Of a stretch of DNA of 64,000 bases, positions 506-22,869 are shown in pieces. The stretch's first letter is position 1. Each line of letters opens with the position of its first letter. Where the stretch lies: the NCBI GenBank assembly GCA_963832165.1, contig CAWHTE010000004.1, positions 32,001 to 96,000 of the forward strand. The letters are read 5' to 3'. Made by a program: the position numbers and the translations under genes. The stretch comes from an uncultured delta proteobacterium (GTDB taxonomy: Bacteria; Myxococcota_A; UBA9160; SMWR01). The notes beneath the pieces were generated by a model. That model was given only the letters and a program-made list of their open reading frames with translations. It had not been told where the DNA came from and made no database searches.

Positions 506-2848
506 CTAATGCCCTTTGCCAGGAGTTCGCCCTCCATTCGGCGGTGAGCTCGGATGCGTCGGCTCGGCGAGTCGCGCGAAGAACGAGTCGATCGCGGGCA
601 TCGCGCGAATCACTTCCGCGAACGCGGAGCTGATATTGATCGTGAGATGGACGGGGCGGCCGCCCTGGAAGGAGGGATTGGTTCCGCGCAGCTTGCACTG
701 CACGTCGGCGCGCTCGTCCAGCCAACCCGTCGCCGTCACATCGAGCACTTCGTAGCGGAAATCCCTCAACGCGTCGCGCAGCATGCCGCTCACGTCGGTC
801 GGTGCTGCCGGAGCGCCACTGCCTTCCGAGGGTCGATACCGGATCCGTCCGCCTTCGATGGCGCGGATCAGCCCGCCGCGCAGCACGGGCCGACCCGCCT
901 CGACGGCGAGGGTCAGCTGGCCGCCGAGCTTGCCGCTGACCTCGAGCCCCTCGACCGGCGCGAGTGCGAGCAGCGCGGGCGCCTGCAGGTCGACGAACTG
1001 GAACTCGAGGCGCTGCGCGGGGCCGCCGTCGAGATCGAGCCCGCCGCGCACTTCGACGTGGCCGCCCGCAAACTCGATCTCGGCGCGCTCGATCCGGAGC
1101 AGATGCCCCGCGTCGATCGCATAGCGGATCTGCCCGGAGCCGAGCGGAATGCCCGCATCGGCGCGCCGGAAGCGGAGCTCCTGGACGCCGCGCGTCGCGG
1201 GCGGAAAGACCTCGGTGAGCGCGACCGCGCCTGCGAGCCCTTCGATGCGGTTGCGCGAGGCGACGACCAGCGCGTCGTCGCTCTCGATCTGCGCGGTGGT
1301 CGCGAGCCCGGCCTCACCCCAGCGCAGCACGGCATCGATGCCGATCGCTCCGCCGTCGATCCGGAGTGCCTCGCCGATCCAGGGCTCGACGACGCGCATC
1401 GTGGCCTTCTGCGCGCCGAAGGAGAGCGGATCGAAGCGGAGCTGCGCGCGGCCGACTCCCGAGGACAACTTGTGCTCGCCGCGGACCTGCGCCGCGAGCG
1501 AACCGGTCTCGTCGCGTGCACGCGCGTCGAAGCGCACCTGCCGCGCGTCGAGCTCGAGCTTCCCCGTGCCCCGGAGCGGCGGGAAGCGCGGGCGCGCCGC
1601 GGCGTCGATGAGCTGACCGAGCTCGAAACGACCCGCGAGTACGGGATCGGCCGCGCGTCGCCACTCTCCCTGCACGACCGGGGCGCGCAGCGCGATGCCC
1701 GCATCGAGCACGTCGAAGCGGTCGCCCGTGAGACGCAGCGCGCCGCGCGATCCGTCCGCATCCGGGTCGGCCGAGACGTGCAGCACGACACCGCGCCCGC
1801 GCACGCGCCGGTCCCGCGCGCCGAAGCGCACCGAGAGATCGCTCGACTTCGCGACGAGCTTCCCGCCGCGCAGCCGTGCGGTCTCGCCATCGATGCTCAC
1901 GCGGATCGGCTCGGCCGCGTCGCTCTCGATGCAGATCGCGCCTGCGCGCTCGAGCGCGAAGCCCGGTACGAGGGCCCCGGCGGGCAGCGAGAGCGCCATG
2001 CACGGCAAGAGGCTCACGAGCAGAGCGTCTTGCTGCCAGCGCACCCGGATCGGCCCGTTCGCGCGCCGGAGCTGATCGGAGCCCGCCGCGTCGGCGAGCT
2101 GCGCGTCGAGCGCGAGCTCGAAATCGATGGCGTCCGGCGTCTGTGCGCCGGTCCCTTCGAGCTTCACCTGAACACGGTGCGGCCATCGCTGCGCGAGCTC
2201 GGGATCGAGCTGTGCCACGAAAGCTCTATCGGCCGCGAGCTCGGCGCGCGCCTGGATCGCTCCCGATGCGTCGATCTGCGCGCGCGCGCTGCCGGGCGTC
2301 GCATCGGAAAGCTGCCAGTCGAGTGCGATGTGGCCGGAGACCTGCGGCCGCAGGACGAGGTCCGCGTCGATGCGCGCCTGCACGGGCCCGGCTGGCGTGT
2401 CGATCGAGAGCGAACCCGCTTCGACGACGAGGCGCCGCAGCGGCGCGCCGCCGCCGCGCGAGTCGGAGCCGGTGAGCTCGGCGAGCCACGGGTCGAGCGC
2501 GCCGAGCGAAAAGCCGCGCTCGCCGCTGCGCGCGCGAACAGCGAGGCCGTGCAGGGAAGCCGAGTCGACGCGGCGCGCCAGGAGATCGTCCCAGCTCCAG
2601 TCGAGGTCGATGCGCTGTGCGGCGAGCTCCCCTGAATCGAGATGGATTTCGTGAAGTTGGAGCCGACCCCACGAAAGTGCGTCGATCCGGAACGCGAACG
2701 GCGGAAGACCCGCGCCGCGCAGCGCGCCGTCGATCACCCATGTCACGAGCGAGGGCGCGGCCCACCACCAGAGAGTCAGTGCCAGGACCAGGAGCGCCGC
2801 GAGAGAGCCGGAAAAGAAAGCCAGGAACCTCTTCACAGCCTGGCTCAT
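506..2848 (-). CDS. YdbH-like (AsmA-related) intermembrane lipid transport protein
   Basis: N-terminal TM anchor, long beta-rich body, C-terminal G.L.G.L...GG.IRY...ALRDFRYEVL...LRG.NP.FQGGRPVHL.INI typical of the YdbH C-terminal domain; start set at MSQAVKR. Confidence 0.75.
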   Translation of the reverse strand: MSQAVKRFLAFFSGSLAALLVLALTLWWWAAPSLVTWVIDGALRGAGLPPFAFRIDALSWGRLQLHEIHLDSGELAAQRIDLDWSWDDLLARRVDSASLHGLAVRARSGERGFSLGALDPWLAELTGSDSRGGGAPLRRLVVEAGSLSIDTPAGPVQARIDADLVLRPQVSGHIALDWQLSDATPGSARAQIDASGAIQARAELAADRAFVAQLDPELAQRWPHRVQVKLEGTGAQTPDAIDFELALDAQLADAAGSDQLRRANGPIRVRWQQDALLVSLLPCMALSLPAGALVPGFALERAGAICIESDAAEPIRVSIDGETARLRGGKLVAKSSDLSVRFGARDRRVRGRGVVLHVSADPDADGSRGALRLTGDRFDVLDAGIALRAPVVQGEWRRAADPVLAGRFELGQLIDAAARPRFPPLRGTGKLELDARQVRFDARARDETGSLAAQVRGEHKLSSGVGRAQLRFDPLSFGAQKATMRVVEPWIGEALRIDGGAIGIDAVLRWGEAGLATTAQIESDDALVVASRNRIEGLAGAVALTEVFPPATRGVQELRFRRADAGIPLGSGQIRYAIDAGHLLRIERAEIEFAGGHVEVRGGLDLDGGPAQRLEFQFVDLQAPALLALAPVEGLEVSGKLGGQLTLAVEAGRPVLRGGLIRAIEGGRIRYRPSEGSGAPAAPTDVSGMLRDALRDFRYEVLDVTATGWLDERADVQCKLRGTNPSFQGGRPVHLTINISSAFAEVIRAMPAIDSFFARLAEPTHPSSPPNGGRTPGKGH

Positions 2849-2895: not shown

Positions 2896-5109
2896 ATGCA
2901 CAGGGTGTGTTCGAGGCGGCTCCTGCTGCCGTTCCTCTCGATCCTGCCGGCGTTGGTGCTCGACTCCGCACCGAGCCATGCCGCGTCGCGCGCGCTGCTG
3001 ATCGGCATCAACGACTACGTCGCGGTTCCCAAGCTGCGCGGCGCGCTCAACGACGTGGAGTTCCTGCGCGAGGTCCTCGTCTCGCGCTTCGCGTTCCAGC
3101 CGCAGGACATCGAGTCCGTGACCGAGCTGCAGGCGAGCCGCGAGGGCATCCTCGCCGCGTTCGATCGGCTCGCGGCCCGGACCCAGAAGGGAGACGTCGT
3201 CTACGTCCATTTCTCCGGACACGGGTCGCAGGTGGGCGATCGAAACGGGGACGAAGAGGACGGGCAGGACGAGACGATCGTTCCGCAGAACGGCCGCACC
3301 CAGGGCGTCACCGACATCACCGACGACGAGATCGCCGAGAAGCTCGCGAAGATTCCCGCGAAGTCGGTCATCGTGGTGCTCGATTCGTGTCACGCGGGTA
3401 CGGCGACGCGGAGTCTCGGCTCGATGAGCGGTGCCGACGCGCTGCTGGGCGGGCTCGTGCCTCGCAACGTGCCGCCCGACGACCGCACCGAGCTCTATCG
3501 CGCGCAGGACGAGAGCGCACCGCGCTCCCGGGCGGTGGTGCCGCTCGTGTCGAGCGGCCACGTGCTGTTCACGGGCGCGGCGGTCAACGAGGAGGCGCTC
3601 GACGGTCCGGTCGATCGCAAGCCGCACGGACTGTTCAGCTATTCGCTGGGCAAGAGCCTGTCGCGTGCGGCGCCGACCGCCACGCCGCGCGAAGTGTTCG
3701 CGGGCGTCGCGCAGGAGTTCGAGCGGATCCGCGGGCAGCTGAACCTGCGCAAGATGCCCGATCCGCAGCTCGAGGCCGTCTCCGCGGATCTCGATCGGCC
3801 GCTGCTCGCGGCGGCGGTGGAGAGCCCGGGCGCGGCACCCGTCTCTCCTGCGGCGGGCTCTCCGGGCGCGCCCGCGCGGCTGGCCTGGATCGAGGTCGCG
3901 CCGCTCGGTGATGGCGTGGTCCGGCTCGCGCGCGGAGCGTCGATGGGCGCGGGGCGCGGGTCGCTCTGGGCGGTGTACCCGCCCGGCGAGCTGCGCTTCC
4001 CGCCGGGCAAGGCACTCGCCGAGGCCGAGATCACCGAGATCAAGGGAGGCGATGCGATCGCCAAGCTCTCGCCCGCGAAAGCCGCGGTGCCGGCCGGCGC
4101 ACGCGCGGTCGCGCTGGCGCCGCCGCCCGCGTCGTCCGAGCTTCCGGTGGCGCTCGTCGACACCGACGCGGCGCGTGCGAAAGCGCTGCGCGCTGCACTG
4201 CCGAAGCGACTGTCGGGCATCCGCTTCGTGGGCGCGGGAGAGTTCGCGCGCTTCGTCGTGCGCTGCAACGCGAGCCGGTGTCGGGTGAACGGCGCGGACG
4301 GGCTGTTCGCGGTCGCCGATCTGGACGCGAGCGACGTCGACTCGCTCGCCGAACAGCTCACCAATCTGTTCTCGCGCTCGCTCACTGCCGCGGAGCTGCT
4401 CGCGCTCGACAATCCGGCTGCGGAGGTGTCGGTGAAGCTGGCGGTGGTCGCGAAGGCGTCGCCGGGGCTCGCGCACGGCGACGAGCGCGGCATGGTGCTG
4501 GTCTCGTCGGGCGAGAGCCCGAGCTTCCGCGTGCGGCGCGAAGGCGCGCCGCGCACGCGCGAGAACAGTCTTCAGCTCCGCGTCGAGGCGAGCGCGGACT
4601 GCCGCGTCACGGTCGTCGACGTCGATTCCGCGGGCACGGTCCAGGTGCTCTTCCCGAACGCGGCGTCGGAGAAGAAGGGCTATTACGCCGATGGAGCCGT
4701 GCGCGCGGGGGAGGCGCTCTTGATTCCCGATTCGCTCGAGCCGGGCAACCGCGCGGGCTTCTTCGTCGATTACTCGCCGCCGGCCGGGACCGACACGTTG
4801 CGCGCGTTCTGCACGCGCGATCCGCGCGCGGCGAGCGCGCTGCGCGCGGCCGTGCGCGCGCTGGACCCGAATGCGCAGGGCACGCGCAGCACGCGGTCGC
4901 GCGGGCTCGGCGCGCTGCGCCATCAGCTGGCCGGGCTCGCCTCGCGCGGTCTCAAGCTCGTCGAAGACGAGGGGCCGCTGCCCGCGCCCGCGGCGACGCC
5001 CTCACCGACACCGGCTCCGGCGCCCGCGGAATCCCCGACTGCGCCCGCGGCCGAGCCGTGGCGTGCCGACTGGGCGGCCGCATCCGTCACGATCCAGGTG
5101 CAGGAGTGA
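2896..5109 (+). CDS. Secreted caspase-family (peptidase C14) protein with C-terminal DUF4384-like domain
   Basis: Signal peptide; RALLIGINDY, LRGALND, FSGHG (His) and LDSCH (Cys) dyad; C-terminal LQLRVEASADCRVTVVDVDSAGTVQVLFPN resembles DUF4384. Confidence 0.85.
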   Translation: MHRVCSRRLLLPFLSILPALVLDSAPSHAASRALLIGINDYVAVPKLRGALNDVEFLREVLVSRFAFQPQDIESVTELQASREGILAAFDRLAARTQKGDVVYVHFSGHGSQVGDRNGDEEDGQDETIVPQNGRTQGVTDITDDEIAEKLAKIPAKSVIVVLDSCHAGTATRSLGSMSGADALLGGLVPRNVPPDDRTELYRAQDESAPRSRAVVPLVSSGHVLFTGAAVNEEALDGPVDRKPHGLFSYSLGKSLSRAAPTATPREVFAGVAQEFERIRGQLNLRKMPDPQLEAVSADLDRPLLAAAVESPGAAPVSPAAGSPGAPARLAWIEVAPLGDGVVRLARGASMGAGRGSLWAVYPPGELRFPPGKALAEAEITEIKGGDAIAKLSPAKAAVPAGARAVALAPPPASSELPVALVDTDAARAKALRAALPKRLSGIRFVGAGEFARFVVRCNASRCRVNGADGLFAVADLDASDVDSLAEQLTNLFSRSLTAAELLALDNPAAEVSVKLAVVAKASPGLAHGDERGMVLVSSGESPSFRVRREGAPRTRENSLQLRVEASADCRVTVVDVDSAGTVQVLFPNAASEKKGYYADGAVRAGEALLIPDSLEPGNRAGFFVDYSPPAGTDTLRAFCTRDPRAASALRAAVRALDPNAQGTRSTRSRGLGALRHQLAGLASRGLKLVEDEGPLPAPAATPSPTPAPAPAESPTAPAAEPWRADWAAASVTIQVQE

Positions 5110-5120
5110 GGTGGAGCGCC

Positions 5121-5612
5121 ATGGGGATCCGGAGCCGGCGTAGATCGGGACCGGCGCTCGCGGCCCTGGTCGCCGCAGGCGTGGCGCTGCTCCAGGTCGC
5201 GTGTGCGTCGAAGGGAACGGTTGCGAGTCAGCTCCGCTTCGTGGACTCCGAGATCTTCGAGAAGGATCTGCAGGCGTCGATGGAAGCCGAGCAGCCGTCG
5301 ATCACTGTGGCGTTCGCGGGCACCGACGCCACGATGAGCAACATGCCCGACCGGCTCGAGAAGTGGCTCTACGTGATCAACGAGCGCGACGAGACCGAAG
5401 TCAAGTTCGAGCCCGACCCGAGCTTCCTGATGCCGAAGAACCCGATCCCGTTCGGTCTCGCGTTCTCGATCGGAATGGCCGGGTGGAACATGTACAAGAA
5501 CTGGGCGCACTACGCGCCCTCACGCGAGTACAACGCGATCGTTCTCTACCACCCCTCCGATGCGTACCTGACGCGCGTGATCTTCGTGCGCAGGAAAGAA
5601 CCCGAGTCCTAG
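5121..5612 (+). CDS. Putative lipoprotein, hypothetical
   Basis: ATG after GGAG; hydrophobic stretch ending QVAC; typical codon usage; abuts next gene. Confidence 0.7.
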   Translation: MGIRSRRRSGPALAALVAAGVALLQVACASKGTVASQLRFVDSEIFEKDLQASMEAEQPSITVAFAGTDATMSNMPDRLEKWLYVINERDETEVKFEPDPSFLMPKNPIPFGLAFSIGMAGWNMYKNWAHYAPSREYNAIVLYHPSDAYLTRVIFVRRKEPES

Positions 5613-7067
5613 ATGGAGCGAGCGACGATGAGGCATGGCAGCGATCGATCGCGGCGCGGGCCGTGGAGAAAACGCGCGCGGATCGGTGTCGTCGTGCTCG
5701 TGGCGTCGGTTCAGCTCTCGTGTGAGACGATCGAGAAGACGCTTCCGTATCTGATCGTCGCGGGCGGCGCGATCGCAGCGGTCGTCGCGTTCAACTACCT
5801 CTCCGATTGCGGAAACGAGTACTCGGTGTGCACCGAGATGCCCGACGGCTCGATGGAACGCGACATGGGCTACACGGAGCAGGTGCTGCTCATGATCGGC
5901 ACGATCACGACGGTAGGCGGCGCTGCGGCCGACTACTGGTCGGAGCACCGCGAGAAGGAGCGCGAGCTCGCGAAACTCGAGGAAGCGGAGCAGAAGGTCG
6001 AGGCCGACTATCAACAGCTCCAGGCGGGCGGCGCGGGAGGCGCGCCGCCGCCCGCGTGGGGTACCGCGTACGGCTCGGCAGCGCCGCCGCCGCCGCCGGC
6101 GCGCTGGGGAGCTGCGCCCTCGGCGGGGGGATGGACGCAGGCGGCACCCCCGCCCACGTACGACGGGAGCGGCGGACAGCCGCCGCAGGCCTATCCACCG
6201 CCGCAGGGCTATCCACCGCAACAGCCCTATCCACAACAGCCACAGCAGGGCTATCCGCCTCAACAGCCCTATCCGCCGCAACAGCCGCAACCGCCCTATC
6301 CGTACCCGCCGCAGGGGTACCCGCAGCAGCCCTATCCGTATCCGCCGCAGGGCGGCTATCCCCAAGGTGGCTATCCGCCGCAGGGCTATCCGCCGGCGCA
6401 GGGCGCGTATCCGCCGCAACAGCCGAGTCCGTGGGGCGACTACGTCCAGCCCCGTTCGGGCGAGTCGCCCCTGGCGATCGAGACCGCGGTTCTGAAGAAG
6501 GTGGGTGCGCGCGCCGCGGTCGTGCCCGACAGCGACATCCTGTTCGACGGCATCGGCGAATCGATCAAGGACGAGTTCCGCGTGTTGTTCCGCCCCAACC
6601 AGCAGTCGCACGTATATGTGATCGGCGTCGATGCGGTGGGGCGCGTGCAGCCGCTGTACCCGCCGAGATTCCCCGACCAGACCAATCCCGTGCTTCCCGG
6701 TGAGACCATCCTGCTTCCGGGCAGCGACACCTGGTATCAGCTCGACCAGTACACGGGTCTCCAGCACATCTACTTCTACGTGAGCCCGACGCGCAACGAG
6801 TGGCTCGAGAAGCAGATGGCCGTGTTTGCGTGGAAGGGCGGGCCGCCGCCCAAGGGTGCGAACGGTGAGATCCACTACGTGAGCGTCCCGACGGTCCTGC
6901 AGTACAGCGGGGGAGGGGGAACCCAGGCGCGCGGAATCCTCAAGCCCGAGACGGGTGAGATCGCGCGGATCCCGGGCGATCTCGGCATGGAGATTCCGAC
7001 GATGCGCGTGACCGGGTCCGCTTCGGGAGAGCCCCTCGTGGTGACGCGAGTCTTCCAGCACGAATAG
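5613..7067 (+). CDS. Putative lipoprotein with Pro/Gln/Tyr-rich linker and DUF4384-like C-terminal domain
   Basis: QLSC lipobox-like; GYPPQQPY repeats; FRVLFRPNQQSHVYVIGVDAVGRVQPLYP...LPGSDTWYQLD...G.QHIYF is DUF4384-like. Confidence 0.75.
   Translation: MERATMRHGSDRSRRGPWRKRARIGVVVLVASVQLSCETIEKTLPYLIVAGGAIAAVVAFNYLSDCGNEYSVCTEMPDGSMERDMGYTEQVLLMIGTITTVGGAAADYWSEHREKERELAKLEEAEQKVEADYQQLQAGGAGGAPPPAWGTAYGSAAPPPPPARWGAAPSAGGWTQAAPPPTYDGSGGQPPQAYPPPQGYPPQQPYPQQPQQGYPPQQPYPPQQPQPPYPYPPQGYPQQPYPYPPQGGYPQGGYPPQGYPPAQGAYPPQQPSPWGDYVQPRSGESPLAIETAVLKKVGARAAVVPDSDILFDGIGESIKDEFRVLFRPNQQSHVYVIGVDAVGRVQPLYPPRFPDQTNPVLPGETILLPGSDTWYQLDQYTGLQHIYFYVSPTRNEWLEKQMAVFAWKGGPPPKGANGEIHYVSVPTVLQYSGGGGTQARGILKPETGEIARIPGDLGMEIPTMRVTGSASGEPLVVTRVFQHE
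6170..6430 (+). repeat. Imperfect coding tandem repeat (GYPPQ/QPYP)
   Basis: Repeated ctatccgccgca(g/a) units. Confidence 0.8.
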
Positions 7068-7082
7068 ACCGGGGAGGGCGCG

Positions 7083-8273
7083 ATGTCGCGTTGGTGGGTT
7101 CGGCTCGGCTGGTGTGTCTGGCTGTGCAGCGCGTCGATCCATCCGGCGTTCGGCGAGGAGTGCACGGCCGTCGCTGCGGGCGAGGGCGAGGAGATCCAGA
7201 AGTACGCGAACGAGTGCTTCAAGAAGCTCGGCATCGATCCGGCCGAGTTCGCGAAGACGTTCAACTGCGTGGATCCCGACGTCGCCAAGCACCTGAAGGT
7301 CGAGGTCGACGGGGCCGAGGTGAAGACATGCCTCGATACGCGCGAGGGCGAATGCCAGTGGGCGAAGGACAAGGCCGAGCTCGAGGCGACGTTCAAGACA
7401 TGCGACTACCCGGCCTGGCTCGACGACCGCTGCTACGGCGACAGCTACATCCAGGTGCTCACGACCAGCAAGCCCGAGGTGAAGGGCGCGCTGCTTTGCC
7501 GGCACAAGTCGAGGTTCACGGGGCTGTTCGACGACTTCGACGACGTCGCGATGATCGTTCACAACCGCGCGAGCGGAGAGACGTGCTGGTTCCAGTCGAA
7601 CAACGCGGACGGCGATCCGGACATCAAGATGCACGGCCAACAGGTCCCGGGTCCGGCCTGCGAGGGCTCCGAGAGCTTCTGGTACTCGCCCGAAGCCTCG
7701 AGGAATGTCTACTGCATCCACTGCCACGACAGCGGCCCGTGGATGAACAGCCGCTGGATGCGGCGCGCGACGGAATCGCTCGGCAGCGCGTATGAGGAGG
7801 AGACCTCGCCCTATCTCAACAGCACGCCGCCGTTCGATGCGTGGCCCGTGCCGATATTCGTGAAGTACAACAAGCATCTGAAGGAGAAGGACGGCACCGA
7901 GTTCGAGGGCTGCACGGACTGCCACAAGATCGCCGCAGCGCGAACTCTTCCCGGGGCGGCGGTGGACGGGTCGGACATCGAGTACAAGACCTGCGACACC
8001 TGGATCAACCGCACGACCGGCAAGCCGGATGACCCGCTGAAGGCTTTGCTCACCGAGGAAGCCAAGAAGGATCACGTCCAGTACTGGATGCCGGATGGCG
8101 TCGACTTGAGCAAGGCCGATTGGGAGAAGAAATACCGCAAGCACGTCGACGGGCTGATCGCGTGCTGCAAGGCCGTGGGCAAAGGGCCCAATCGGTTGCC
8201 GGACGGTTGCAAGGCCTACTGCCCCGATCAAGCGGACGGCAAGTGCCCGGCCGACCGCTGGCCGTCGTCCTGA
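7083..8273 (+). CDS. Secreted Cys-rich diheme c-type cytochrome (paralog A)
   Basis: Signal peptide; two CxxCH motifs (CIHCH, CTDCH); many additional Cys; paralogous to 10626..11750. Confidence 0.75.
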   Translation: MSRWWVRLGWCVWLCSASIHPAFGEECTAVAAGEGEEIQKYANECFKKLGIDPAEFAKTFNCVDPDVAKHLKVEVDGAEVKTCLDTREGECQWAKDKAELEATFKTCDYPAWLDDRCYGDSYIQVLTTSKPEVKGALLCRHKSRFTGLFDDFDDVAMIVHNRASGETCWFQSNNADGDPDIKMHGQQVPGPACEGSESFWYSPEASRNVYCIHCHDSGPWMNSRWMRRATESLGSAYEEETSPYLNSTPPFDAWPVPIFVKYNKHLKEKDGTEFEGCTDCHKIAAARTLPGAAVDGSDIEYKTCDTWINRTTGKPDDPLKALLTEEAKKDHVQYWMPDGVDLSKADWEKKYRKHVDGLIACCKAVGKGPNRLPDGCKAYCPDQADGKCPADRWPSS

Positions 8274-8277
8274 CTCG

Positions 8278-10629
8278 CTATTCGGTGTCCGGCAGCTCGT
8301 CCACGAACAGGATCGATTCGTTGCTCTTGGTGCGCGGCGCGGAGACGGTCTTGTTGCCGCGCAGGCGCCACGAGACGTCGTAGAAGTAGTCGTACTGCCC
8401 ATCGGGCAGCATGAACGGAATGCGCGTGGAGAGCTCGCCGCGCGACGTGTTGAGTGTCACCTGCTCGACCTGCTCCTTGCCCGCCAGGTCGTAGTACAGG
8501 CGCACGGTCGTCGCGCGGACGTCCTTCACGTTCTCGGGGTCGGCCTCGAGGCTCACGCTGCGGATCTGGTAGGGCGGCACTGCGCGGATTCCGCTCGCAT
8601 TGGTGCGCTGCCACGGCTCCTCGACGTCTTGTCCGCCGAAGAAGCTCCAGACCGCGCGCCACTCGTACTCGAGCCACTCGTTGCGGTCGTCGTCGCCCTT
8701 CCAGCCGTAGAGCATGCGGAAGCGGTTGCCCTCCGCGTTGAAGTTCTTCCGGTCGATCCGGACCTCGTCCACCGTGATCTCGCCGTTCTGGTGCGTCTTG
8801 CGCATCTGCACGCTGACGAAGTTGACGAACTTGCCGAAGTCGTCGCCGTTCATGCCGTCGACGTACACGGCGATCTCGCGCTGCTTGTAGAGCGGATCGT
8901 CGAGGTTGGCCTTGCGGAAGTACTGCGGGTCCTCGAGATATTGCTGGAGGTCGCCGATGTTCTCGTCGAAACGGACGGGTAGCTCGCCGTTCGAGTATTT
9001 CTCGAGGTTGTAGCGGAACTCGCCCGAGCGCTTGACCTTCTTGAGCTCGTAGCTCGCGAACCCGACGATCGCGGGCCGCTCTTCGGTTCCCGCGGTCGCC
9101 ACCTCGGAGTTGCCCGCGGCCTTGCGGCCGGCATCGGCCGCGTTCTTGGCCTTCGTGGCCTCCTCGCGCGCGCCCTTCAGCTGGGCTTCGAGGTCCTTGA
9201 TTTCCTTTTCCTTCGCAGCGATCTCGGGGTTCGCGTTCGGCGCGGTGGGCTTCTCCGCGGGCTTCTCCGGGGTGGGCTTGACCGCAGTGGGTTTCTCCGC
9301 GGGCTTTTCCGCGGGCTTCACCGGGGTGGGCTTCTCCGCGGGTTTCTCCGCAGGCTTCTCTGCAGGCTTTTCCGCGGGCTTCTCTGCGGGTTTCTCCGCC
9401 GTCTCCGCAGGTTTTTCCGCGGGCTTCTCCGGCGCGGGTTTTTTCACTACCGCTGCGCGCGACGCGGTCTGCTTCGACTTGAGCTCAACGAGTTCCTTCT
9501 CCGCCTTGCGCAGCTTCTCTTCGAGCTCGGTCACACGCGCATTCGCCTTGTCCGACTCCTTCTCCAGTCGCGCGACCTCGGCCTTGTCCACCTCCGCGCG
9601 TTTCCCCTTCTCGCGCGCGGCGAGATTCTCCTTGCGGATCGCCTCCGCCTTCTGCTGGAGGGATTCGTTTCCGCCCGCGGCACCGTCCTTCTTCGCGTCG
9701 GCGAGCGGATCGGGGATGCCCTTGTTCTTGTCGAAGAGCAGATTCATGAACAGGTCATGGGTCTGACCGACCAGCCTGTTGAACTGCTCGTCGCCGCCGC
9801 CCCCGATGATCTGGATGTCGATCACCTTCTTCTCGATCAGCTCATCCATCGCCGAGCTGAGCTTGAACTCGAACTGGGGCGTGGCGACCGCGGCCTTGAT
9901 CGCCTCGTGTTCGTAGACCTGGTCCAGGTTCGCGACGATCGTGGCCTTCGCGGGCGACCAGTATCCGGGCAGCTTCATGTCGAACGAGAAGCTGATGTCG
10001 GGCGTCGCCATCTGGAACGACTGCCACAGGATCTGCGCACCCATCTTCGTGAGCTGGAGCGACACCGCCGCCTTGCCGCCTTCGAGCACCGGGGCGTTTC
10101 CGAGACCCACGACGCGCTTCACGAGCTCGCCATTGTCCTGCTGGAACGCGGAGACGAGCGCGAACGTGCCGCTGCGGTAGATCGCGGGGCCGACGATCTT
10201 CGCGCCCGGGGTCTGCGCGTCGAGCGCGTGCTGAGCGCGCTCGATCTGCGCCTGTGGGACGTCGAGCGAGACCACCGCGTGCAGGATCCCGCCGCCGATC
10301 CCCTCCTTCGGTGCGTCGTCCGATCCAGTTCCCTCGACGTTCTGCACGTAGCGCAGGAACGAGAACTGCGGGCGGCCCTGCGGATCGCGTCCGAGCCGCG
10401 GCGTCATCGGGGCATAGAGATACGACTTGGGATCGCCGACCACCGGGAAGAGCATCAGGCCAGCGGCCTTCACGGGCTGGTCGAGCACGATCCGGCCGCC
10501 GCCTTCGCCGGACGGAGCAGCGGCGGTCGCATTCGGAGCGCGCGGACGTACCGACTCGGCCAGCGCCGGGCTCGCTGCGGCGGACGCGATCGCGATCGCC
10601 AACCAGAACGCGAGCACGGCGGACCTCAC
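8278..10629 (-). CDS. Large secreted hypothetical protein with coiled-coil and EKPA-repeat insertion
   Basis: GTG start overlapping the upstream TGA; signal peptide MRSAVLAFWLAIAIASAAASPALA; globular N- and C-terminal regions around a charged helical/EKPA segment. Confidence 0.8.
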   Translation of the reverse strand: MRSAVLAFWLAIAIASAAASPALAESVRPRAPNATAAAPSGEGGGRIVLDQPVKAAGLMLFPVVGDPKSYLYAPMTPRLGRDPQGRPQFSFLRYVQNVEGTGSDDAPKEGIGGGILHAVVSLDVPQAQIERAQHALDAQTPGAKIVGPAIYRSGTFALVSAFQQDNGELVKRVVGLGNAPVLEGGKAAVSLQLTKMGAQILWQSFQMATPDISFSFDMKLPGYWSPAKATIVANLDQVYEHEAIKAAVATPQFEFKLSSAMDELIEKKVIDIQIIGGGGDEQFNRLVGQTHDLFMNLLFDKNKGIPDPLADAKKDGAAGGNESLQQKAEAIRKENLAAREKGKRAEVDKAEVARLEKESDKANARVTELEEKLRKAEKELVELKSKQTASRAAVVKKPAPEKPAEKPAETAEKPAEKPAEKPAEKPAEKPAEKPTPVKPAEKPAEKPTAVKPTPEKPAEKPTAPNANPEIAAKEKEIKDLEAQLKGAREEATKAKNAADAGRKAAGNSEVATAGTEERPAIVGFASYELKKVKRSGEFRYNLEKYSNGELPVRFDENIGDLQQYLEDPQYFRKANLDDPLYKQREIAVYVDGMNGDDFGKFVNFVSVQMRKTHQNGEITVDEVRIDRKNFNAEGNRFRMLYGWKGDDDRNEWLEYEWRAVWSFFGGQDVEEPWQRTNASGIRAVPPYQIRSVSLEADPENVKDVRATTVRLYYDLAGKEQVEQVTLNTSRGELSTRIPFMLPDGQYDYFYDVSWRLRGNKTVSAPRTKSNESILFVDELPDTE
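9247..9431 (-). repeat. 12-bp coding tandem repeat (EKPA)n
   Basis: Repeated gggcttctccgc variants on the + strand. Confidence 0.85.
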
Positions 10630-11750
10630 GGGGTCACCGGGCAGTTGCCGTCGGCGTCCTCGGCCATCGGGCAGGAGGCCGTCACGGATTCCACCTGACA
10701 TCCATTCGGCCATTGGCTCTCGGGCTTTCCACTGCCGACCGCTTTGCAGCACGCGACGATCCTCTCGACCTTGTCGTGATAGGTCTTGTTCCATTCGCCT
10801 TCGCTCGTCAGGCCGTGCCCATCGGGCATCCAATGGGTCACTTCGAAGCTCTGCCCCATGGTGCTGGCTCTCGCGTGGACCTTGCCGGTCGCGAGTCGGA
10901 TCCAGGCGTCGCAGGTGCGGAAGTCGGGCCCGCCGATCGAGTTGGCGCGGTCGACGCTCGCGCGCGCGGCCGCGATGTGGTGGCACATCGTGCAGGTGTC
11001 GTCGCCGTCGATCTCGACGAACTTGGGCTCGGGCCACGTGTCGAACGGCGGCTCGCTGTTCTTGTAGGGGCCGTTGTCACCCGCGAGATCGCTTCCAATC
11101 GTGTTGTTCATCCAGCGGCTGTTCATCCACGGTCCGCTGTCGTGGCACTTGATGCACATGACATCGCGGGTGTCGGACGGCTTCATCCAGAAGTCGTGAC
11201 CGCTCACCGTGGCCGGACCCGGCACGATCGTGCCATCGAGATGCTGCGATTTCCCATCCTCGGTCTGAAACCAGCACGTCTCGCCATTGCCGCGGTTGTG
11301 CACGATCATCGCGATGTCGTCGAAGCCGGTGACGAGGTTCCCCTCCAGATCGAGCAGAGGAGCCGGCCCGAGGCCCCAGCGCGTCTTGTGCCGACACAAG
11401 AGCGCCGCCTTGACCTGCGGGTTCGACGGCGTCGGCACGACCTGGATGTAGCTGTGCCCGTAGCACTTGTTGTCGAGCCACGTCCCGTAGTCGCAGGCGT
11501 CGGGAATCTCCTTGGCACAGCCCGCGTCCTTGCACAGGTCCAGGTCCTGGACGACGCCCTCGACCGTCGAGACGAGCCGTTTGCCCTTCGTGCAGTCGAA
11601 CGAGCCCTTCAGGTCGTCTGCATCGAGGTGCAGGCGTTCGAAGCAGCTCTTGGCGTACTCCCAGACGTCGGGGTCGCTGTCCGCCGCAGCCGGCCCGGAC
11701 CCGGCGAGGAGTAGAACGACGGCGGCGGTCGCGATGCGTCCCACCTTCAC
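10626..11750 (-). CDS. Secreted Cys-rich diheme c-type cytochrome (paralog B)
   Basis: GTG start coupled to the upstream stop; signal peptide; CIKCH and CTMCH; shares CDY.. WLD..CYG.SYIQV, ALLCRHK, FDD.AMIVHNR..GETCWFQ and CHDSGPWMNSRWM with paralog A. Confidence 0.75.
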   Translation of the reverse strand: MKVGRIATAAVVLLLAGSGPAAADSDPDVWEYAKSCFERLHLDADDLKGSFDCTKGKRLVSTVEGVVQDLDLCKDAGCAKEIPDACDYGTWLDNKCYGHSYIQVVPTPSNPQVKAALLCRHKTRWGLGPAPLLDLEGNLVTGFDDIAMIVHNRGNGETCWFQTEDGKSQHLDGTIVPGPATVSGHDFWMKPSDTRDVMCIKCHDSGPWMNSRWMNNTIGSDLAGDNGPYKNSEPPFDTWPEPKFVEIDGDDTCTMCHHIAAARASVDRANSIGGPDFRTCDAWIRLATGKVHARASTMGQSFEVTHWMPDGHGLTSEGEWNKTYHDKVERIVACCKAVGSGKPESQWPNGCQVESVTASCPMAEDADGNCPVTP

Positions 11751-12499
11751 TCCTCTGTCAGATCCGCCTTGTCCGGCGTCGAACCCGAGAGACAGTGCAT
11801 GAAGTGCGCCCACCCGTCTGCCGCGTAGAAGTTTCCGCACCGGATCTCGCAGTCGAACAGCCCGCAGTAGCTTTCCTCACCGCTCTCTTCGCGAACGCCC
11901 ACGAGGTGCGCGCTCTCGTGAATGAGCGTGCGGATCCGCTGCTCGGGCGAGCTCTTCTCCTTGGCGAAGAATCCCGGACAGAGCTGGATCGGCGGCGACG
12001 TACCCAGGACGTAGGCGGCGCGTCCGGTGCAGTTCGTATCCTCGGCGGACGCGCACGCTGTGGGCAGGTCCGCGTTCGAGACACGGTTGCGGATCTTCTC
12101 CGAGATCTCGACGACCTGCTCGAAGTCGAGGTCGTCGTCGATCAGCTTCGCGGCCAGGCTCTCCGCCTCGCGCTGATCGTTCGTTCCCGTCGACGGATGC
12201 AGCCCGCGCGCGCGATCGGTTGCGGTCTGGGTCCGGATCGCCGCGGCCTTGCGCGCGGTCTCGATCTGCTCCTCCTGGGCGGGCGTGCACCCCTCTGCCG
12301 CCACGCGGCTCTGTACGGTCGGATTCGGCTTCTTGACGATCTTGCTCGGATCCGGCTTGGCCGCTGAGCGCGTCCGGGCTTTTTCCGACTTCTGCTTGAT
12401 CACGGGTTTCGCGGCGGGCTCTTCGGCAAGCAGCGCGGACGGGCATGCGAGCACCATCCACATCACGACGGATCCAGCGATCAACCGGTTTCGCTTCAT
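11747..12499 (-). CDS. Secreted HExxH zinc metallopeptidase (M35/lysine-specific metallo-endopeptidase-like)
   Basis: Signal peptide; C...C...AAYV......I.LCPGFF and TLIHESAH. Confidence 0.7.
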   Translation of the reverse strand: MKRNRLIAGSVVMWMVLACPSALLAEEPAAKPVIKQKSEKARTRSAAKPDPSKIVKKPNPTVQSRVAAEGCTPAQEEQIETARKAAAIRTQTATDRARGLHPSTGTNDQREAESLAAKLIDDDLDFEQVVEISEKIRNRVSNADLPTACASAEDTNCTGRAAYVLGTSPPIQLCPGFFAKEKSSPEQRIRTLIHESAHLVGVREESGEESYCGLFDCEIRCGNFYAADGWAHFMHCLSGSTPDKADLTEE

Positions 12500-12552
12500 C
12501 TCGACGTCGACCTCCCTGCTCGAGACCGCCGCATCTTATCGCGTCGGGGGGA

Positions 12553-14409
12553 TTAACTCCGCGGCACGAAGAAGAAATCGCCGCTTTCGTGGCCGGCGAA
12601 CTTGATCGGTGCGTACTGCGGCAGCTGCTCGAACTGCTGCGCCTCGGCGGCCCAGGCCACGCGCGCCGAGATCTCCTGGAACAGCCGCTGCCCTTCGATC
12701 GCCTCCTGGGCTTCCCCGAGCACGGTGAGCAGCGCCTTGGCGAAGATCGAGTGATCGCCGCCGCCCGAGTCGAGCACGGGAGCGATGCCACCCGAGGTCA
12801 GCGCGGTGCGCGACTTCTTGCCGGCCATCCCGCGCATCCAGGCCATGCGCGCCTCCTTCGTCATGCCGGCTTCGAGGCGCGCGAGTGACGAGCGCGTGAG
12901 GGCGCCCGAATAGCACGAGTCGGCCACGACGATGATGTGTTTCGCCGACATCGCGTTGAGCAGATCGGTCAGATCCACGTTCGAGATCCAGTTGGCCGTG
13001 CTCGCGGGCTCGGCGTCGGTCGGGAGCCAGTGGCCGCGGCTGTTCGCGCGGTCGAGCTCGCCGTGACCGGCGTAGAAGATCAGCAGGTTGTCCTTCTCGG
13101 TGAGCTTGCCGCGCAGCGTGTTGAGCGCGGACAGGATGTCGTAGCGGGTCGCGTCGAGCAGCGTCGTGACCTCGAAGCCGAACTTCTTCTCGAGCAGCTT
13201 GCCGAGCTCGCGCGCGTCGGCGCGCGCGGTGGCGAGGTCGTGCACCTCGGGATTCTTGTAGCTGTCGTTGCCGATCACGAGCGCGTAGTAGCGGCCGAAG
13301 TCGATCGCGGGCTCGGACGGGCGCACGGGCTCCCCGGCGGCCTCGCGCGTTCCGGGCTCGAGCACGAACACGCGATCCGCACGGCCGCCCTGGCGATCCG
13401 TGGCCACGATCGTGATCTTGGTCCCCTGCGCTCCCACGATCACCTCCGAGCGGAACATTCCCTTGTCGGTGACGGGAAGTGACGCGTCGTTGAGCGTGAG
13501 GCTCATGAGGCCGGCCGGCGCCTCGACGTGGCCGACCAACACGCGCCGGGTATCCGCGACGATCGTCTGCACGAGAGTCACGCCGCGCGTGATCGGCACC
13601 TTGGGATCGAGGATCTGGATCGTCGGAGCCGGCAGCTTCACACCGGGCGGCGGCTTCGCGGCGATCTGCACGCGCAGCGCGTCCGCTTCGTTGCGCAGCC
13701 GATCGACCTCGACCTCGAGCTGCGAGACGCGCACCGCGCCATCCGCGCTCGCGTTCGAGCGGTCGCGGCGCAGCTCGTCGAGCTCCTGTCGCAGGCGCTC
13801 GACCTCCTGCTCGCGGCGGCGGAGATCCTGCTTGAGCTGGTCGAGCTCGCCGCTCGACGGCGCCGAGGGCTGGAAGTTCACCTCGAGATCGGCGAGCCCC
13901 GACGCGCGCCGATACCACGCGAGCGCCTGGGCCGGGTCGCGCGGCACGCCGCGGCCGAGCTCGTAGAGCTGGCCGAGATTGATCTGCGCGGGAGCCCAGC
14001 CCTGGTCGGCCGCGCGCCGATACCACGTGGCCGCGGCCTCGTAGTCGGACGCGAGGCCCATGCCCTTCTCGTAGATCTCGCCGACGTAGGTCTGCGCCTG
14101 CGCGTCGCCCGCTTTGGCGGGCTCGAGCCACACGGCGAGTGCCGTCGCGTAGCTCGCGCGGTCGTAGGCCGTGTACTCCCCGCCGCGGATCGCGCAGTCG
14201 CTGCCCGTGGTCTTGATCGCGCGCCGCGCCGTGAGGTAGGTCATCTGCTGCCCGAGCCGGCGCACCTTGCCCGGCAGCAGGCAGTCCACCACGAGCAGCT
14301 CGCCGGATTCCTGCGCCGTGCTCTCTCCGGGGCGCGGCGCGACGTCGCTCGCGCAGGCGAGCGCGAGCCCGCCTGCGCAGAGCCATGCCTGGGTCCGGAA
14401 CGCGCTCAT
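12553..14409 (-). CDS. Lipoprotein with Sel1-like repeats, coiled coil and C-terminal caspase (C14) domain
   Basis: LALAC lipobox; AQTYVGEIYEKG and AQINLGQLYELGRG Sel1 repeats; YALVIGNDSY, FYAGHG, ADSCY. Confidence 0.85.
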   Translation of the reverse strand: MSAFRTQAWLCAGGLALACASDVAPRPGESTAQESGELLVVDCLLPGKVRRLGQQMTYLTARRAIKTTGSDCAIRGGEYTAYDRASYATALAVWLEPAKAGDAQAQTYVGEIYEKGMGLASDYEAAATWYRRAADQGWAPAQINLGQLYELGRGVPRDPAQALAWYRRASGLADLEVNFQPSAPSSGELDQLKQDLRRREQEVERLRQELDELRRDRSNASADGAVRVSQLEVEVDRLRNEADALRVQIAAKPPPGVKLPAPTIQILDPKVPITRGVTLVQTIVADTRRVLVGHVEAPAGLMSLTLNDASLPVTDKGMFRSEVIVGAQGTKITIVATDRQGGRADRVFVLEPGTREAAGEPVRPSEPAIDFGRYYALVIGNDSYKNPEVHDLATARADARELGKLLEKKFGFEVTTLLDATRYDILSALNTLRGKLTEKDNLLIFYAGHGELDRANSRGHWLPTDAEPASTANWISNVDLTDLLNAMSAKHIIVVADSCYSGALTRSSLARLEAGMTKEARMAWMRGMAGKKSRTALTSGGIAPVLDSGGGDHSIFAKALLTVLGEAQEAIEGQRLFQEISARVAWAAEAQQFEQLPQYAPIKFAGHESGDFFFVPRS

Positions 14410-14453
14410 GGATGGCGGTCCATCGACCCCGCCATCCTATCACCCCGCGCCGA

Positions 14454-15665
14454 TCAGAACTCGATCCGCCCACCCGCTGTGAAGCGGTGATGCTCGACGT
14501 CGCTCAGGGCGAGCACCGTGTCGTAGTCGATGAAGGCGGAGATGCCGTGGGCGAACCCCGCCGATACGCCGGCGCCGAGGCGCCCATAGTCGCGGTCCGG
14601 GGAGTCGGTGCGCGAGATCAACACGTCGTTGACCGGGTTGGAGTTCAAGAACAGGCGCGCGTCGATGTTGCGCGCGTCGTTCTCGAACTCGTGCTCCCAG
14701 GTGGCGCGCAGGTGCGGGACGATCACCCCGAATCCGGTCGAGATCGCATACGAGGCCTCGGCCCCGAGGCTCGACACGAGCGACGTGATGTCCTGGTCGT
14801 CGTATTTGAGCGGGAACGCCTGCACCTGCGATTCGGAATAGCCGTCGATCCAGGTCTGGCGGTAGTCGATTCCCGCGATCGGTCCGACTCCGAGAGCGTC
14901 GAACGCGAACTCGTAGCCGCCGCTCAGGCTGAAGCCGACCTGATTCGCATCCGTGTCGCCCTTGGCCGAGGCGAGGAAGACCGCCTCGTCGAGCAGCACG
15001 ATCGGGCGATCGTACTCGTAGTCGAGATAGGTGTAGGTCACGATTCCATCGACGTGGAACGGACCCGAGAAGAAGCTCGCGTAGAGCGACGGGGTGTACG
15101 AGTCGGATTCGACCTCGCCGCCGCCGGTGTTGAAGCCGGATCCGTTCGCGGCCGCGATCTCGTCGAACTCGCTGTTCTGGCGGTTCCAGCCGAAGCCGAA
15201 GCCGGCCACGAACGAATCGCTCAGGCGATAGTCCACGCCGGCCTGCACGCCGCCGCCCCAGACCTCATACTCATCCGCCTCGCCGCGCGCGTCGACCTCT
15301 CCGAAGCCGCCCGAGCCGTTCAGGAAGGCACCGAGTCGCGACGCGCCATCCTCCTCACGCGCCTGCTCGAGCCGGTCGGCCTCGGCCGACACCTGGGTGT
15401 CGGTCGTCTGGGTCGCCGTGCTGCTGGCCGCGCTCTGCTCGCGCGGAGACACCTGCAATGCGTCCTGGGTCTGCTGCGCGCCGACGCCGAAGGCGACGTC
15501 GCAGCTCTGCGCCGCGAGATTCGGATCGCTGGCCGTACCACACAGACCCGCCATCACGGCGGTCGTGCGCGCGACGAGATCCGCTTGATTCGTCGCAGCC
15601 GCGGGCGCACACCACAACACCAACGCGAAACCAAAGAAGAGGCGGAACACGATGCGATCGGACAT
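14454..15665 (-). CDS. Autotransporter-type outer-membrane beta-barrel protein with minimal passenger
   Basis: Signal peptide; GVDYR, GFGFGW, HLRATWEHEF, C-terminal GRIEF. Confidence 0.8.
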   Translation of the reverse strand: MSDRIVFRLFFGFALVLWCAPAAATNQADLVARTTAVMAGLCGTASDPNLAAQSCDVAFGVGAQQTQDALQVSPREQSAASSTATQTTDTQVSAEADRLEQAREEDGASRLGAFLNGSGGFGEVDARGEADEYEVWGGGVQAGVDYRLSDSFVAGFGFGWNRQNSEFDEIAAANGSGFNTGGGEVESDSYTPSLYASFFSGPFHVDGIVTYTYLDYEYDRPIVLLDEAVFLASAKGDTDANQVGFSLSGGYEFAFDALGVGPIAGIDYRQTWIDGYSESQVQAFPLKYDDQDITSLVSSLGAEASYAISTGFGVIVPHLRATWEHEFENDARNIDARLFLNSNPVNDVLISRTDSPDRDYGRLGAGVSAGFAHGISAFIDYDTVLALSDVEHHRFTAGGRIEF

Positions 15666-15759: not shown

Positions 15760-16725
15760 TCAGCGGGTTCGCTTCATCCAATCCACGGTCAGCGCGACAC
15801 CCTGGGCGACGCTAAAGGGCAGCGGACCGCAGACGGCCTGCAGCGGTGCCATGTCGTAGATCATCGGGGTGAGCAGGTTCTCGAGCCGGAAGCTCGTGAG
15901 CGGCACGTCCTTCCAGCCGAGCATCGCCAGTCCGTCGCCGACGCGCGCGATCCCGCGCAACAGCCCCTGCGGAACGTCGCGGATCGGCCGCACGCCGAAC
16001 GCCTCGCGGATCATCTCACCCCAGGCGCGCACCTCGATCGGCTCGTAGTCCGCGATGTAGAAGAGCTGGCTCCGGATCGCCGCCGCGGGCGCCTGCATGA
16101 GCCGATCCAGCTGGTGAACCGTGTTGCCCACGAAGCCGAACGACTTCTGGATGCGCGCGCCCTTCGGGTGGATGTAGCGGCCATGGCGGACCATGTCGAA
16201 GAAGTCGCGGTAGGGCACGCCGAACCACGGGCCCCAGATCGAAGTCGGGCGCACGATCGTCCATTCGCAGGACATGCCGGCGCTGCGCACGCGCTGCTCG
16301 CCGATCACCTTGCTCTCACCATAGAGCGTGCTGGGCTGATAGTCGGTCGGGGATTTCGGGTGGTAGCCGATCCGGCAGACCAGGCGCGACGAGGCGAACA
16401 CGATCCGCTGCAGCGACGGGCACGACGCCGCCGCCTTGATCATGTTGTCGACGCCGTCCGTATTGGCGCTGTAGTCCGACAGCGTCGTTCCGTGCATGTC
16501 CGTGCGCGCGGCCAGGTGGTGGATGAACTGCGGCTGGAACTCGACGACCGCCGCACAGAGTGCCCCCGCGTCGGTGATGTCCACGTTGCGCCACAGCGGG
16601 CGATGCGCCTCGCAGCCCGGCGCGCGGATGTCGAGGTTGCACAGCTCGTGGCCGGCCCCGCGCAGCGACTCCACGAGATTGGTGCCGATGAAGCCGGACC
16701 CTCCCGTGACGAGGACCCTGCTCAT
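15760..16725 (-). CDS. NAD-dependent epimerase/dehydratase
   Basis: VTGGSGFIG, HLAA, YGESK. Confidence 0.9.
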   Translation of the reverse strand: MSRVLVTGGSGFIGTNLVESLRGAGHELCNLDIRAPGCEAHRPLWRNVDITDAGALCAAVVEFQPQFIHHLAARTDMHGTTLSDYSANTDGVDNMIKAAASCPSLQRIVFASSRLVCRIGYHPKSPTDYQPSTLYGESKVIGEQRVRSAGMSCEWTIVRPTSIWGPWFGVPYRDFFDMVRHGRYIHPKGARIQKSFGFVGNTVHQLDRLMQAPAAAIRSQLFYIADYEPIEVRAWGEMIREAFGVRPIRDVPQGLLRGIARVGDGLAMLGWKDVPLTSFRLENLLTPMIYDMAPLQAVCGPLPFSVAQGVALTVDWMKRTR

Positions 16726-17993: not shown

Positions 17994-18203
17994 GTCGAAG
18001 CCTCGCGCCGCGACCCGACCCGATGATCAGTGAAACGGATCCATTCCCGGTAATTGGACCGGGTAAGCGGCGGAACAAGTGTTTCACACTCCAAGCGGCA
18101 AGTGCTAGTCCAGCTCGCGAGAATTTCACGTCGAATGGTTCGCCGAGCGAATGGACCCGTTCGCCGGCCGAACCGTCAGGCGATCGACTGCGGGCTAGCG
18201 GCG

Positions 18204-18980: not shown

Positions 18981-18988
18981 GGTGCTCC

Positions 18989-20125: not shown

Positions 20126-20197
20126 GGGCCCATTCTAAGGGAGGGAGCACCCGCGAAGCAGGGAAGGGGCCCGCAGGCCCCGCGCTATGTTGAGGGC

Positions 20198-20562
20198 ATG
20201 CCGAACGATCCGGGACGCCCGGGGGGTCCGCCGGTCGGCCCGCCGGCCGGCCCGCGCCGCGCCGACCCGCGCCGCGAGGGCGAGGTCCTGACCGCGACGC
20301 GCCGCAAGGTGGCGCGTCCGCCAAAGTACAAAGTGCTGCTCTACAACGACGATTACACGCCGATGGAGTTCGTCGTGGCGATTCTCGAGAACCTGTTCGG
20401 GAAAGGACCGACGGAGGCCACGCAGATCATGCTCGCGATCCACCACACCGGGCTCGGCGTCGCGGGCGTCTATGTGCAGGACGTCGCGGAAACCAAGGTA
20501 GCGGCCGTGCACTCGGCGGCCGAACAGCGAGGCTACCCGCTGCGCGCGGGTGCGGAGAAGGA

Positions 20563-20566
<4 letters not shown>
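20198..20566 (+). CDS. clpS: ATP-dependent Clp protease adaptor ClpS
   Basis: YKVLLYNDDYTPMEFVV, IMLAIH..G, AETKV; overlaps clpA start. Confidence 0.95.

Positions 20567-22869
<2,303 letters not shown>

Follow-up and report, generated by a model that had tools for sequence, protein, structure and literature searches.

We analysed a 64,000-nucleotide stretch (the window) of contig CAWHTE010000004.1 from an uncultured delta proteobacterium (Myxococcota_A; host G+C content, 69 to 70%), in which nine open reading frames (ORFs), two of them encoding caspase-like proteases, form a pair of convergent operons. An earlier, sequence-only reading had proposed that these operons encode an extracytoplasmic proteolytic system in which each caspase is paired, mirror fashion, with a dihaem cytochrome. 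All nine ORFs were found in the sequence at the positions and on the strands given here, and the 4-bp gap at which the operons meet (8273/8278) was confirmed. The plus-strand operon encodes caspase A (2896-5109; 737 aa; C14 and DUF4384), a small lipoprotein of no Pfam family (5121-5612; 163 aa; lipobox Cys28), a Pro-rich DUF4384 lipoprotein (5628-7067, with an alternative start at 5613; 479 aa), and a putative dihaem c-type cytochrome A (7083-8273; 396 aa; two CxxCH motifs). On the minus strand lie a 783-aa protein, here called zeta (8278-10629), a putative dihaem c-type cytochrome B (10626-11750; 374 aa; two CxxCH motifs), an exported M35-like HExxH metallopeptidase (11747-12499; 250 aa; PF14521, E value of 3e-6, below the cutoff), the lipoprotein caspase F, with Sel1 repeats, a coiled coil, and a caspase domain (12553-14409; 618 aa), and an autotransporter-type outer membrane barrel (14454-15665; 403 aa; PF03797, E value of 9e-59). 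We treat the cytochromes and the metallopeptidase as accessory. From left to right, the intergenic gaps are 11, 15, 15, 4, -4, -4, 53, and 44 bp.

A hidden Markov model search with Pfam recovered C14 plus DUF4384, DUF4384, Sel1 plus C14, and the autotransporter barrel, with M35 weakly matched. No Pfam model matched either cytochrome, the small lipoprotein, or the 783-aa protein above the cutoff. All nine proteins have a basic n-region and a hydrophobic h-region, in line with the export signals proposed earlier, as judged by a charge and hydrophobicity heuristic only and not by SignalP. By the same heuristic, the h-region was weakest in cytochrome A (1.59), a lipobox-like Cys was present in the 163-, 479-, and 618-aa proteins and, ambiguously, in the HExxH protein, and none of the nine proteins had a transmembrane helix farther along the chain.

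These nine genes are half of a ∼27-kb locus that extends beyond the left edge of the window. A gene for a YdbH-like (AsmA-family) bridge protein (506-2848, minus strand; 780 aa; PF11739, E value of 6.7e-51) leads an operon that, by gene calling, runs leftward past the window (G000:C4:20298-34848, where G000 is the source genome and C4 the source contig; other G and L labels denote compared genomes and loci). Behind ydbH this operon holds six subunit genes, a fused ynbE-ydbL lipoprotein gene, and a gene for a 228-aa lipoprotein, which has no Pfam match and no similarity to the small lipoprotein of the window. The subunit genes are thus inserted between ydbH and the fused ynbE-ydbL, next to two exported C14 proteases. 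Scans for promoters (0 versus 0.6) and terminators (9 versus 5.5 ± 2.5) did no better than on shuffled sequences, and no plasmid match was found. The right-hand neighbours in the window (15760-22869) look like housekeeping genes by eye (epimerase, glycosyltransferase, GNAT protein, and clpS-clpA).

Caspases A and F are the only two C14 genes of the genome (PF00656 scores of 90.9 and 82.9 bits; cutoff, 21.4). Both retain the His-Cys dyad that had been ascribed to them (H109/C165 in caspase A and H449/C499 in caspase F), and in caspase F the dyad is invariant in 120 of 120 homologues. Caspase A is type I metacaspase-like; its best match in the PDB was the yeast metacaspase (E value of 1.4e-18), and an acidic loop starting at D115 aligns residue for residue with that of Yca1. 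In the yeast enzyme, this loop has a role in calcium. Metacaspases are described as calcium dependent and as cleaving after Arg or Lys (PMC5756287), and one bacterial caspase cleaves strictly after Arg (10.1101/2024.10.24.620036). Based on family membership and on the conserved Arg sites described below, we infer that caspases A and F would also cleave after Arg or Lys. Caspase-DUF4384 fusions are already known in cyanobacteria (PMC7475262), and in 2012 Asplund-Samuelsson noted in silico 46 metacaspases in which an N-terminal helix or a signal peptide precedes the protease, along with Sel1 fusions (PMC3501461). Because of these predictions, export of a bacterial metacaspase is not new in itself.

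Several neighbours accompany the caspases in other genomes. The barrel protein is almost passenger-less, with the barrel match covering residues 114 to 382 of 403, and lacks the passenger domain of a classical autotransporter; its gene also adjoins caspase F in G005, G006, G330, G422, and G017. At L173:7110-10340 in G017, the barrel and Sel1-caspase genes form a convergent pair, and the rest of the cluster is absent. The small lipoprotein gene adjoins that of caspase A or of the Pro-rich protein in G005, G006, G330, G422, G506, and locus L026. In the Pro-rich lipoprotein, a tether is suggested by residues 126 to 262, 78% of which are Pro, Gln, Gly, or Tyr. The metallopeptidase carries its HExxH motif at H194 and had no sequence match in the PDB; a natural fusion of a 243-aa accessory protein with this peptidase lies beside zeta and caspase F at L089:1891-3273.

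The 783-aa protein has four clear paralogues 11 to 19 kb upstream on the same contig. By its sequence relationships, it is a displaced zeta subunit of an unannotated exported family of six gene types, which we labelled alpha, beta, gamma, delta, epsilon, and zeta; the gene types carry export signals, and delta is doubled in the source operon. The family had no match in Pfam, NCBIfam, PHROG, PADLOC, or, by sequence, the PDB, which was searched with the subunit and gamma profiles; a cytochrome profile likewise had no match there. Atlas matches for the subunit were unnamed clusters only. The family comprises 1,829 clusters at 50% identity (E value of 0.001). We collected 76 metagenome loci (a few of them duplicates), and the order alpha-beta-gamma-delta-epsilon-zeta was kept in 58 of the 64 that hold at least two subunit types (G+C range, 0.35 to 0.73). 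The six exceptions are four rearranged loci of this lineage, one locus with alpha moved, and one in which beta was not called. Across distant bacteria, the six subunits are conserved one for one at 40 to 60% identity. HHalign linked beta, gamma, epsilon, and zeta to delta at 98 to 100% (zeta versus delta, probability of 100%). In a FastTree phylogeny of 57 rows, the subunits fell into separate clades, with gamma and epsilon each a single group, and the 783-aa protein grouped within zeta, where its sisters are the sequences from G006 and G514. Two rows that had been labelled delta from their best BLAST hit were placed elsewhere.

Zeta contains a coiled-coil/PAEK-repeat insert of ∼200 aa (about residues 321 to 519). 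In the model of delta (pLDDT, 85.7), the predicted N-terminal domain is rich in beta structure, with long strands and an inserted helical segment, and is accompanied by two FnIII-like domains; a disordered loop at 315 to 346 marks the position of the zeta insert. Foldseek searches of the PDB and viral sets with this model gave generic Ig/FnIII matches only, and the best match in a VIA fold search had a Z score of 7.9 (root mean square deviation [rmsd], 2.9; 105 residues aligned). A two-chain prediction of gamma with delta scored 0.35 against 0.07 for the best control, with contacts agreeing at least 61% between runs and a partner pLDDT of at least 67. This lends weak support to a complex: 116 of 157 solved pairs reach the mark we used, as do 2 of 215 mismatched ones, and the passes at 0.60 or under comprise 18 solved pairs and both mismatches.

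Three further observations concern this family. The beta gene of the source assembly (G000:C4:29362-30462; about 15230-16462 of L004, minus strand) is frameshifted, either by an assembly error or by a recent break, and its orthologues in G005 and G006 are intact (420 to 423 aa). An unannotated exported protein of ∼480 aa follows zeta in canonical operons at L028:15724-17154 and 14 other loci, sometimes with CARDB proteins; it was not seen in the cluster of this lineage. Finally, loci L121 to L124 (G412:C47 and G293:C30) hold a signal-less branch of the family, 700 to 2,200 aa long with extra C-terminal domains, in clusters that also encode a muramidase, a Tae4-like amidase, and an S8 peptidase.

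The operon led by ydbH contains all three bridge families (PF11739 and PF07027 above the cutoff and PF13617 just below it). Ordinary ynbE and ydbL are separate genes in four of the five genomes that we read, and the fifth has them elsewhere. They are fused into one ORF in 8 of 80 matching genomes, and these are exactly the 8 genomes with a subunit operon, 2 of which keep a split copy elsewhere; the other full-length YnbE-YdbL matches list internal stops, and two of those were read. The linker of the fusion has an Arg in 12 of 12 sequences (R66, the candidate cut position), always followed by Gly or Ser, although flanking columns are conserved in only 3 to 7 of 12. A comparable residue lies in a variable linker of caspase F: R275 (codon at 13585-13587, minus strand), the most conserved candidate cleavage site in the window, is Arg in 120 of 120 homologues, with Gly next in 105 of 120, and its flanks have the lowest conservation (mean, 0.45) of 13 conserved Arg residues. 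A third site occurs near the N terminus of alpha in 6 of 7 sequences of this lineage versus 0 of 23 others, even though the preceding strand can be aligned in most sequences of either group; the seventh row is a fragment whose true start has Thr-Arg-Ala. Other candidates are R506 of caspase F, after the catalytic Cys (Arg in 116 of 120 homologues), the possible self-cleavage sites R172 and R684 of caspase A (each kept in 7 of 8 aligned homologues), R435 of the Pro-rich lipoprotein (Arg-Gly at or near the column in 8 of 9), and R98 of the HExxH peptidase (Arg-Gly in 4 of 4). The tripeptide TRG was observed 9 times in the cluster, against ∼2.7 expected. What is new here is a candidate Arg↓Gly/Ser site shared by the fusion linker, the caspase F linker, and the alpha subunit of this lineage only. 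Judging by their conservation, these Arg sites are probably where the exported proteases cut.

The genes co-occur beyond the source genome. Among 193 genomes of the order, 8 have an orthologue of caspase A (E < 1e-60, a floor, with one match cut by a contig end) and 8 have a subunit operon (at least four matches); the overlap is 7 genomes in four families. The ydbH gene is divergent from caspase A in seven genomes (G000, G005, G006, G330, G422, G504, and G506) and in locus L026. The arrangement of the rest varies. In G330, caspase A, both lipoproteins, and caspase F share one strand and zeta follows ynbE; in G422, everything from caspase A to caspase F, zeta included, is on one strand; and in G506, caspase F and the barrel are absent from the stretch read, where two other C14 genes are found. 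Immediately after its cargo zone, G506 encodes a two-partner secretion pair and a WD40-caspase (L141:17772-19999 and L142:490-7070). Relatives carry zero, one, or two cytochromes. Since the layouts vary in this way, the mirrored pairing of caspase with cytochrome is local and does not hold as a feature of the system. The linkage of the modules is nevertheless kept through several rearrangements in the four families. The junction between the operons is a cargo zone, holding different secreted genes in each relative (Lnt-like, amidase, or unknowns), for example, a peptidoglycan amidase beside zeta in G506; in G293, a Tae4-like amidase and a muramidase lie beside the signal-less branch.

Because the genes co-occur and the co-encoded candidate substrates share Arg sites, the earlier proposal of an extracytoplasmic proteolytic system is likely in its core, and its mirror and redox link are unlikely. 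More specifically, we lean, by a small margin, toward a locus that builds an exported multisubunit assembly together with the Arg-specific metacaspases that mature it. In such a scheme, all parts would cross the inner membrane, and the caspases would be tethered to the outer membrane: caspase F by its lipid and perhaps by the passenger-less barrel, and caspase A perhaps via DUF4384 and the two lipoproteins. Activated by calcium and by cutting themselves after Arg, they would then cleave their partners at hydrophobic-x-[Thr/Ser]-Arg↓Gly/Ser linkers. One such cut would free YdbL from YnbE and so license the YdbH-YnbE bridge, and another would remove a pro-segment of alpha. In Escherichia coli, YdbL binds the C-terminal helix of YnbE and excess YdbL blocks the bridge (10.64898/2026.03.16.712125; PMC11126948); given this inhibition, a tethered YdbL that is released by cleavage is a plausible switch. 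The subunits would then form one hetero-oligomer, with the variable coiled-coil insert of zeta as a stalk, and the cytochromes, the metallopeptidase, and, in relatives, wall hydrolases would be exchangeable cargo. The weakest step is the function of the assembly: lectin domains (a ricin-B lectin is fused to one alpha in a related locus) and wall hydrolases in related loci suggest contact with or attack on other cells, and we offer a cell-surface contact or attack device only tentatively. The boldest form of this reading, a bacterial zymogen cascade outside the cytoplasm, is somewhat unlikely; in it, the two co-encoded caspases would use one Arg motif for two purposes, turning on an intermembrane bridge through the release of YdbL from YnbE and starting the assembly of a six-subunit surface machine, undescribed in its architecture, that displays or delivers exchangeable cargo against other cells.

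A number of points weigh against maturation by the caspases. The Arg motif was a post hoc find, its broad form [STA]R[GS] shows hardly any enrichment across the cluster (3.73 versus 2.91 per 1,000 aa), and no convincing lineage-specific Arg site was found in zeta, beta, the small lipoprotein, or the cytochromes. A conserved Arg can be structural, and the genomes share ancestry. The ydbH gene is common in the order (81 of 193 genomes), and in HHalign comparisons alpha aligns only to beta (93%), versus 1 to 5% for gamma, delta, epsilon, and zeta. Among 25 long loci from outside the order, only 3 (L062, L078, and L081) have clan-CD genes close to the subunit operon, with 59 of 108 neighbouring proteins searched against Pfam and all of them against the two caspases by BLAST; therefore, the complex does not generally need caspases. 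The alpha of L062 lacks the Arg site despite its clan-CD neighbour. Modules also stand alone elsewhere, as do caspase A with the Pro-rich protein in G038 and the barrel with caspase F in G017. Moreover, the subunits of this lineage form single clades, so the alpha site and the co-occurrence may both stem from a single event.

The last two points also favour the strongest alternative, a composite island whose independent modules were joined once in an ancestor and have since travelled together, with the caspases cutting themselves or unrelated targets and the Arg being structural. The weak overall enrichment of the motif and the patchy presence of the locus in the genus (3 of 7 genomes) fit this alternative as well. 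We nevertheless consider it unlikely, as the linker with the invariant Arg is peculiar to YnbE-YdbL fusions, the fusion occurs only in subunit-operon genomes, and the linkage has been maintained through the rearrangements in four families.

Still less probable, in our view, is a role of the subunits as a complement-like pore former, activated by proteolysis, that would kill neighbouring cells in the manner of the cholesterol-dependent cytolysin (CDC)-like toxins (CDCLs), with the lipoproteins as immunity factors. A toxin of this kind would fit the presence of several secreted paralogues as subunits, their C-terminal beta-sandwich domains, the hairpin-like and Gly-rich stretches of their alignments, and the wall hydrolases carried as cargo in relatives, and clan-CD C11 proteases activate CDCLs after Thr-Arg (PMC11169675). 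However, the CDC/CDCL motif YGR occurs anywhere in only 4 of 246 subunit sequences and in no conserved column, and the one-for-one conservation of six subunits suits a fixed machine better than a toxin. With the whole 613-aa delta model as the query, no CDC/MACPF, gasdermin, pilin, or phage-tail core was among the listed matches, although one may yet be present; its last domain matched CDC domain 4 (Z score, 6.0 to 6.1; rmsd, 2.9 to 3.3; 83 residues aligned) amid generic sandwiches.

The redox link of the sequence-only reading, in which the mirrored pairs of caspase and dihaem cytochrome form a redox- or haem-controlled proteolytic cascade, fared worse, and we regard it as very improbable. Both cytochromes keep full haem motifs (CxxCH at 211 and 277 with Met336 in cytochrome A, which has 22 Cys residues, and at 199 and 253 with Met308 in cytochrome B), they are 41% identical over 382 columns, and all 41 aligned homologues keep both CxxCH motifs and a Met-Pro. 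These motifs, the export signals, and the maturation genes of the source genome (three PF01578 matches) support their assignment as putative c-type cytochromes. Two cytochromes also lie beside zeta in G514, a member of another family, and two follow the subunit genes in the distant locus L043, which means that the cytochromes do favour the subunit neighbourhood. Yet G514 has no C14 match, and in the subunit-operon genomes the cytochromes number two in G000, one in G005, and one in G006 and were not found in G330, G422, G495, G504, and G506 (89 to 98% complete), four of which keep caspase A. In the phylum, the cytochrome domain is present in 44 of 401 genomes, just 3 of which also match the subunit family, and it is mostly a module of unrelated secreted proteins of ∼1,100 aa. 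In loci L101 to L110, such proteins carry a third CxxCH and represent an undescribed cytochrome family, and in L043 the domain is fused to hemopexin repeats. The cytochrome model (pLDDT, 84.9) gave a best Z score of 3.6 and no Foldseek match at an E value of 0.001; three cytochrome P460/c'-beta entries (Z score, 2.6 to 3.0; rmsd, 4.1 to 4.7; 109 to 111 residues aligned) tied with unrelated rows, and Atlas gave a lead to the same group (0.76).

An equally improbable alternative adds the subunits to the YdbH-YnbE lipid bridge as an extension that would make it an Mce- or TAM-type conduit for import or export. It has in its favour the insertion of six genes in the ydbH-ynbE-ydbL operon and a six-paralogue logic resembling that of Mce operons, but canonical subunit operons of other lineages lack ydbH and ynbE, and no MlaD or permease match was found in Pfam or NCBIfam.

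Maturation of an exported assembly by the two metacaspases thus remains the reading that we prefer. Predictions of bacterial caspases with export signals date back to 2012 or earlier, and in our searches we found neither a substrate nor a role for such enzymes. The present locus points to candidate substrates and to exact sites within them, making the question testable. It also provides a handle on a large unannotated family whose six-gene order persists across distant bacteria, and it suggests that an AsmA-type bridge may be controlled by cutting a natural fusion of YnbE and YdbL. We found no published description of this system in a literature search that excluded subscription papers and supplements.

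Several known systems resemble parts of the locus. In caspase-effector defence (type IV Thoeris, EACC1, gasdermin, and PCaspase systems), a C14 protease likewise lies beside its likely substrate, with Arg specificity in at least one case, but those systems are cytoplasmic with phage sensors (protease-effector modules in 10.1101/2025.11.14.688446 are cytoplasmic), whereas here every part has an export signal. A PADLOC search of 17 cluster proteins gave only a generic caspase model and no cognate defence sensor or effector gene. For the exported metacaspases predicted previously, the available passages of PMC3501461 give no substrates, motif, or partner complex. Mce operons, which encode a heterohexamer of paralogues, share six tandem exported genes kept one for one, although here the homology of alpha rests on its link to beta; unlike Mce proteins, the subunits have no MlaD domain or permease and are predicted to have a beta-sandwich and two FnIII-like domains. 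The CDCL toxins of Bacteroidota are also secreted paralogues, cleaved after Thr-Arg in an N-terminal pro-segment (PMC11169675). In contrast to them, the present subunits lack a conserved YGR, show no CDC core among their fold matches, and come in six fixed types, and their proteases are encoded in the same locus. The E. coli YdbH-YnbE-YdbL bridge has the three families found here in one operon, but here six genes separate ydbH from ynbE, and YnbE is joined to YdbL by a linker with an Arg. Arg-gingipain is a caspase-clan protease. The type V pili of Porphyromonas, which mature through Arg-gingipain, are likewise built from related exported subunits of one operon, with assembly started by an extracytoplasmic Arg-specific protease (PMC5954841). 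They differ in that their prepilins are lipoproteins, whereas ordinary signal peptides are found on the subunits here (the 783-aa protein lacks both a lipobox and Cys), that a pilin sequence or fold is not listed among the subunit matches, and that the proteases are co-encoded C14 enzymes.

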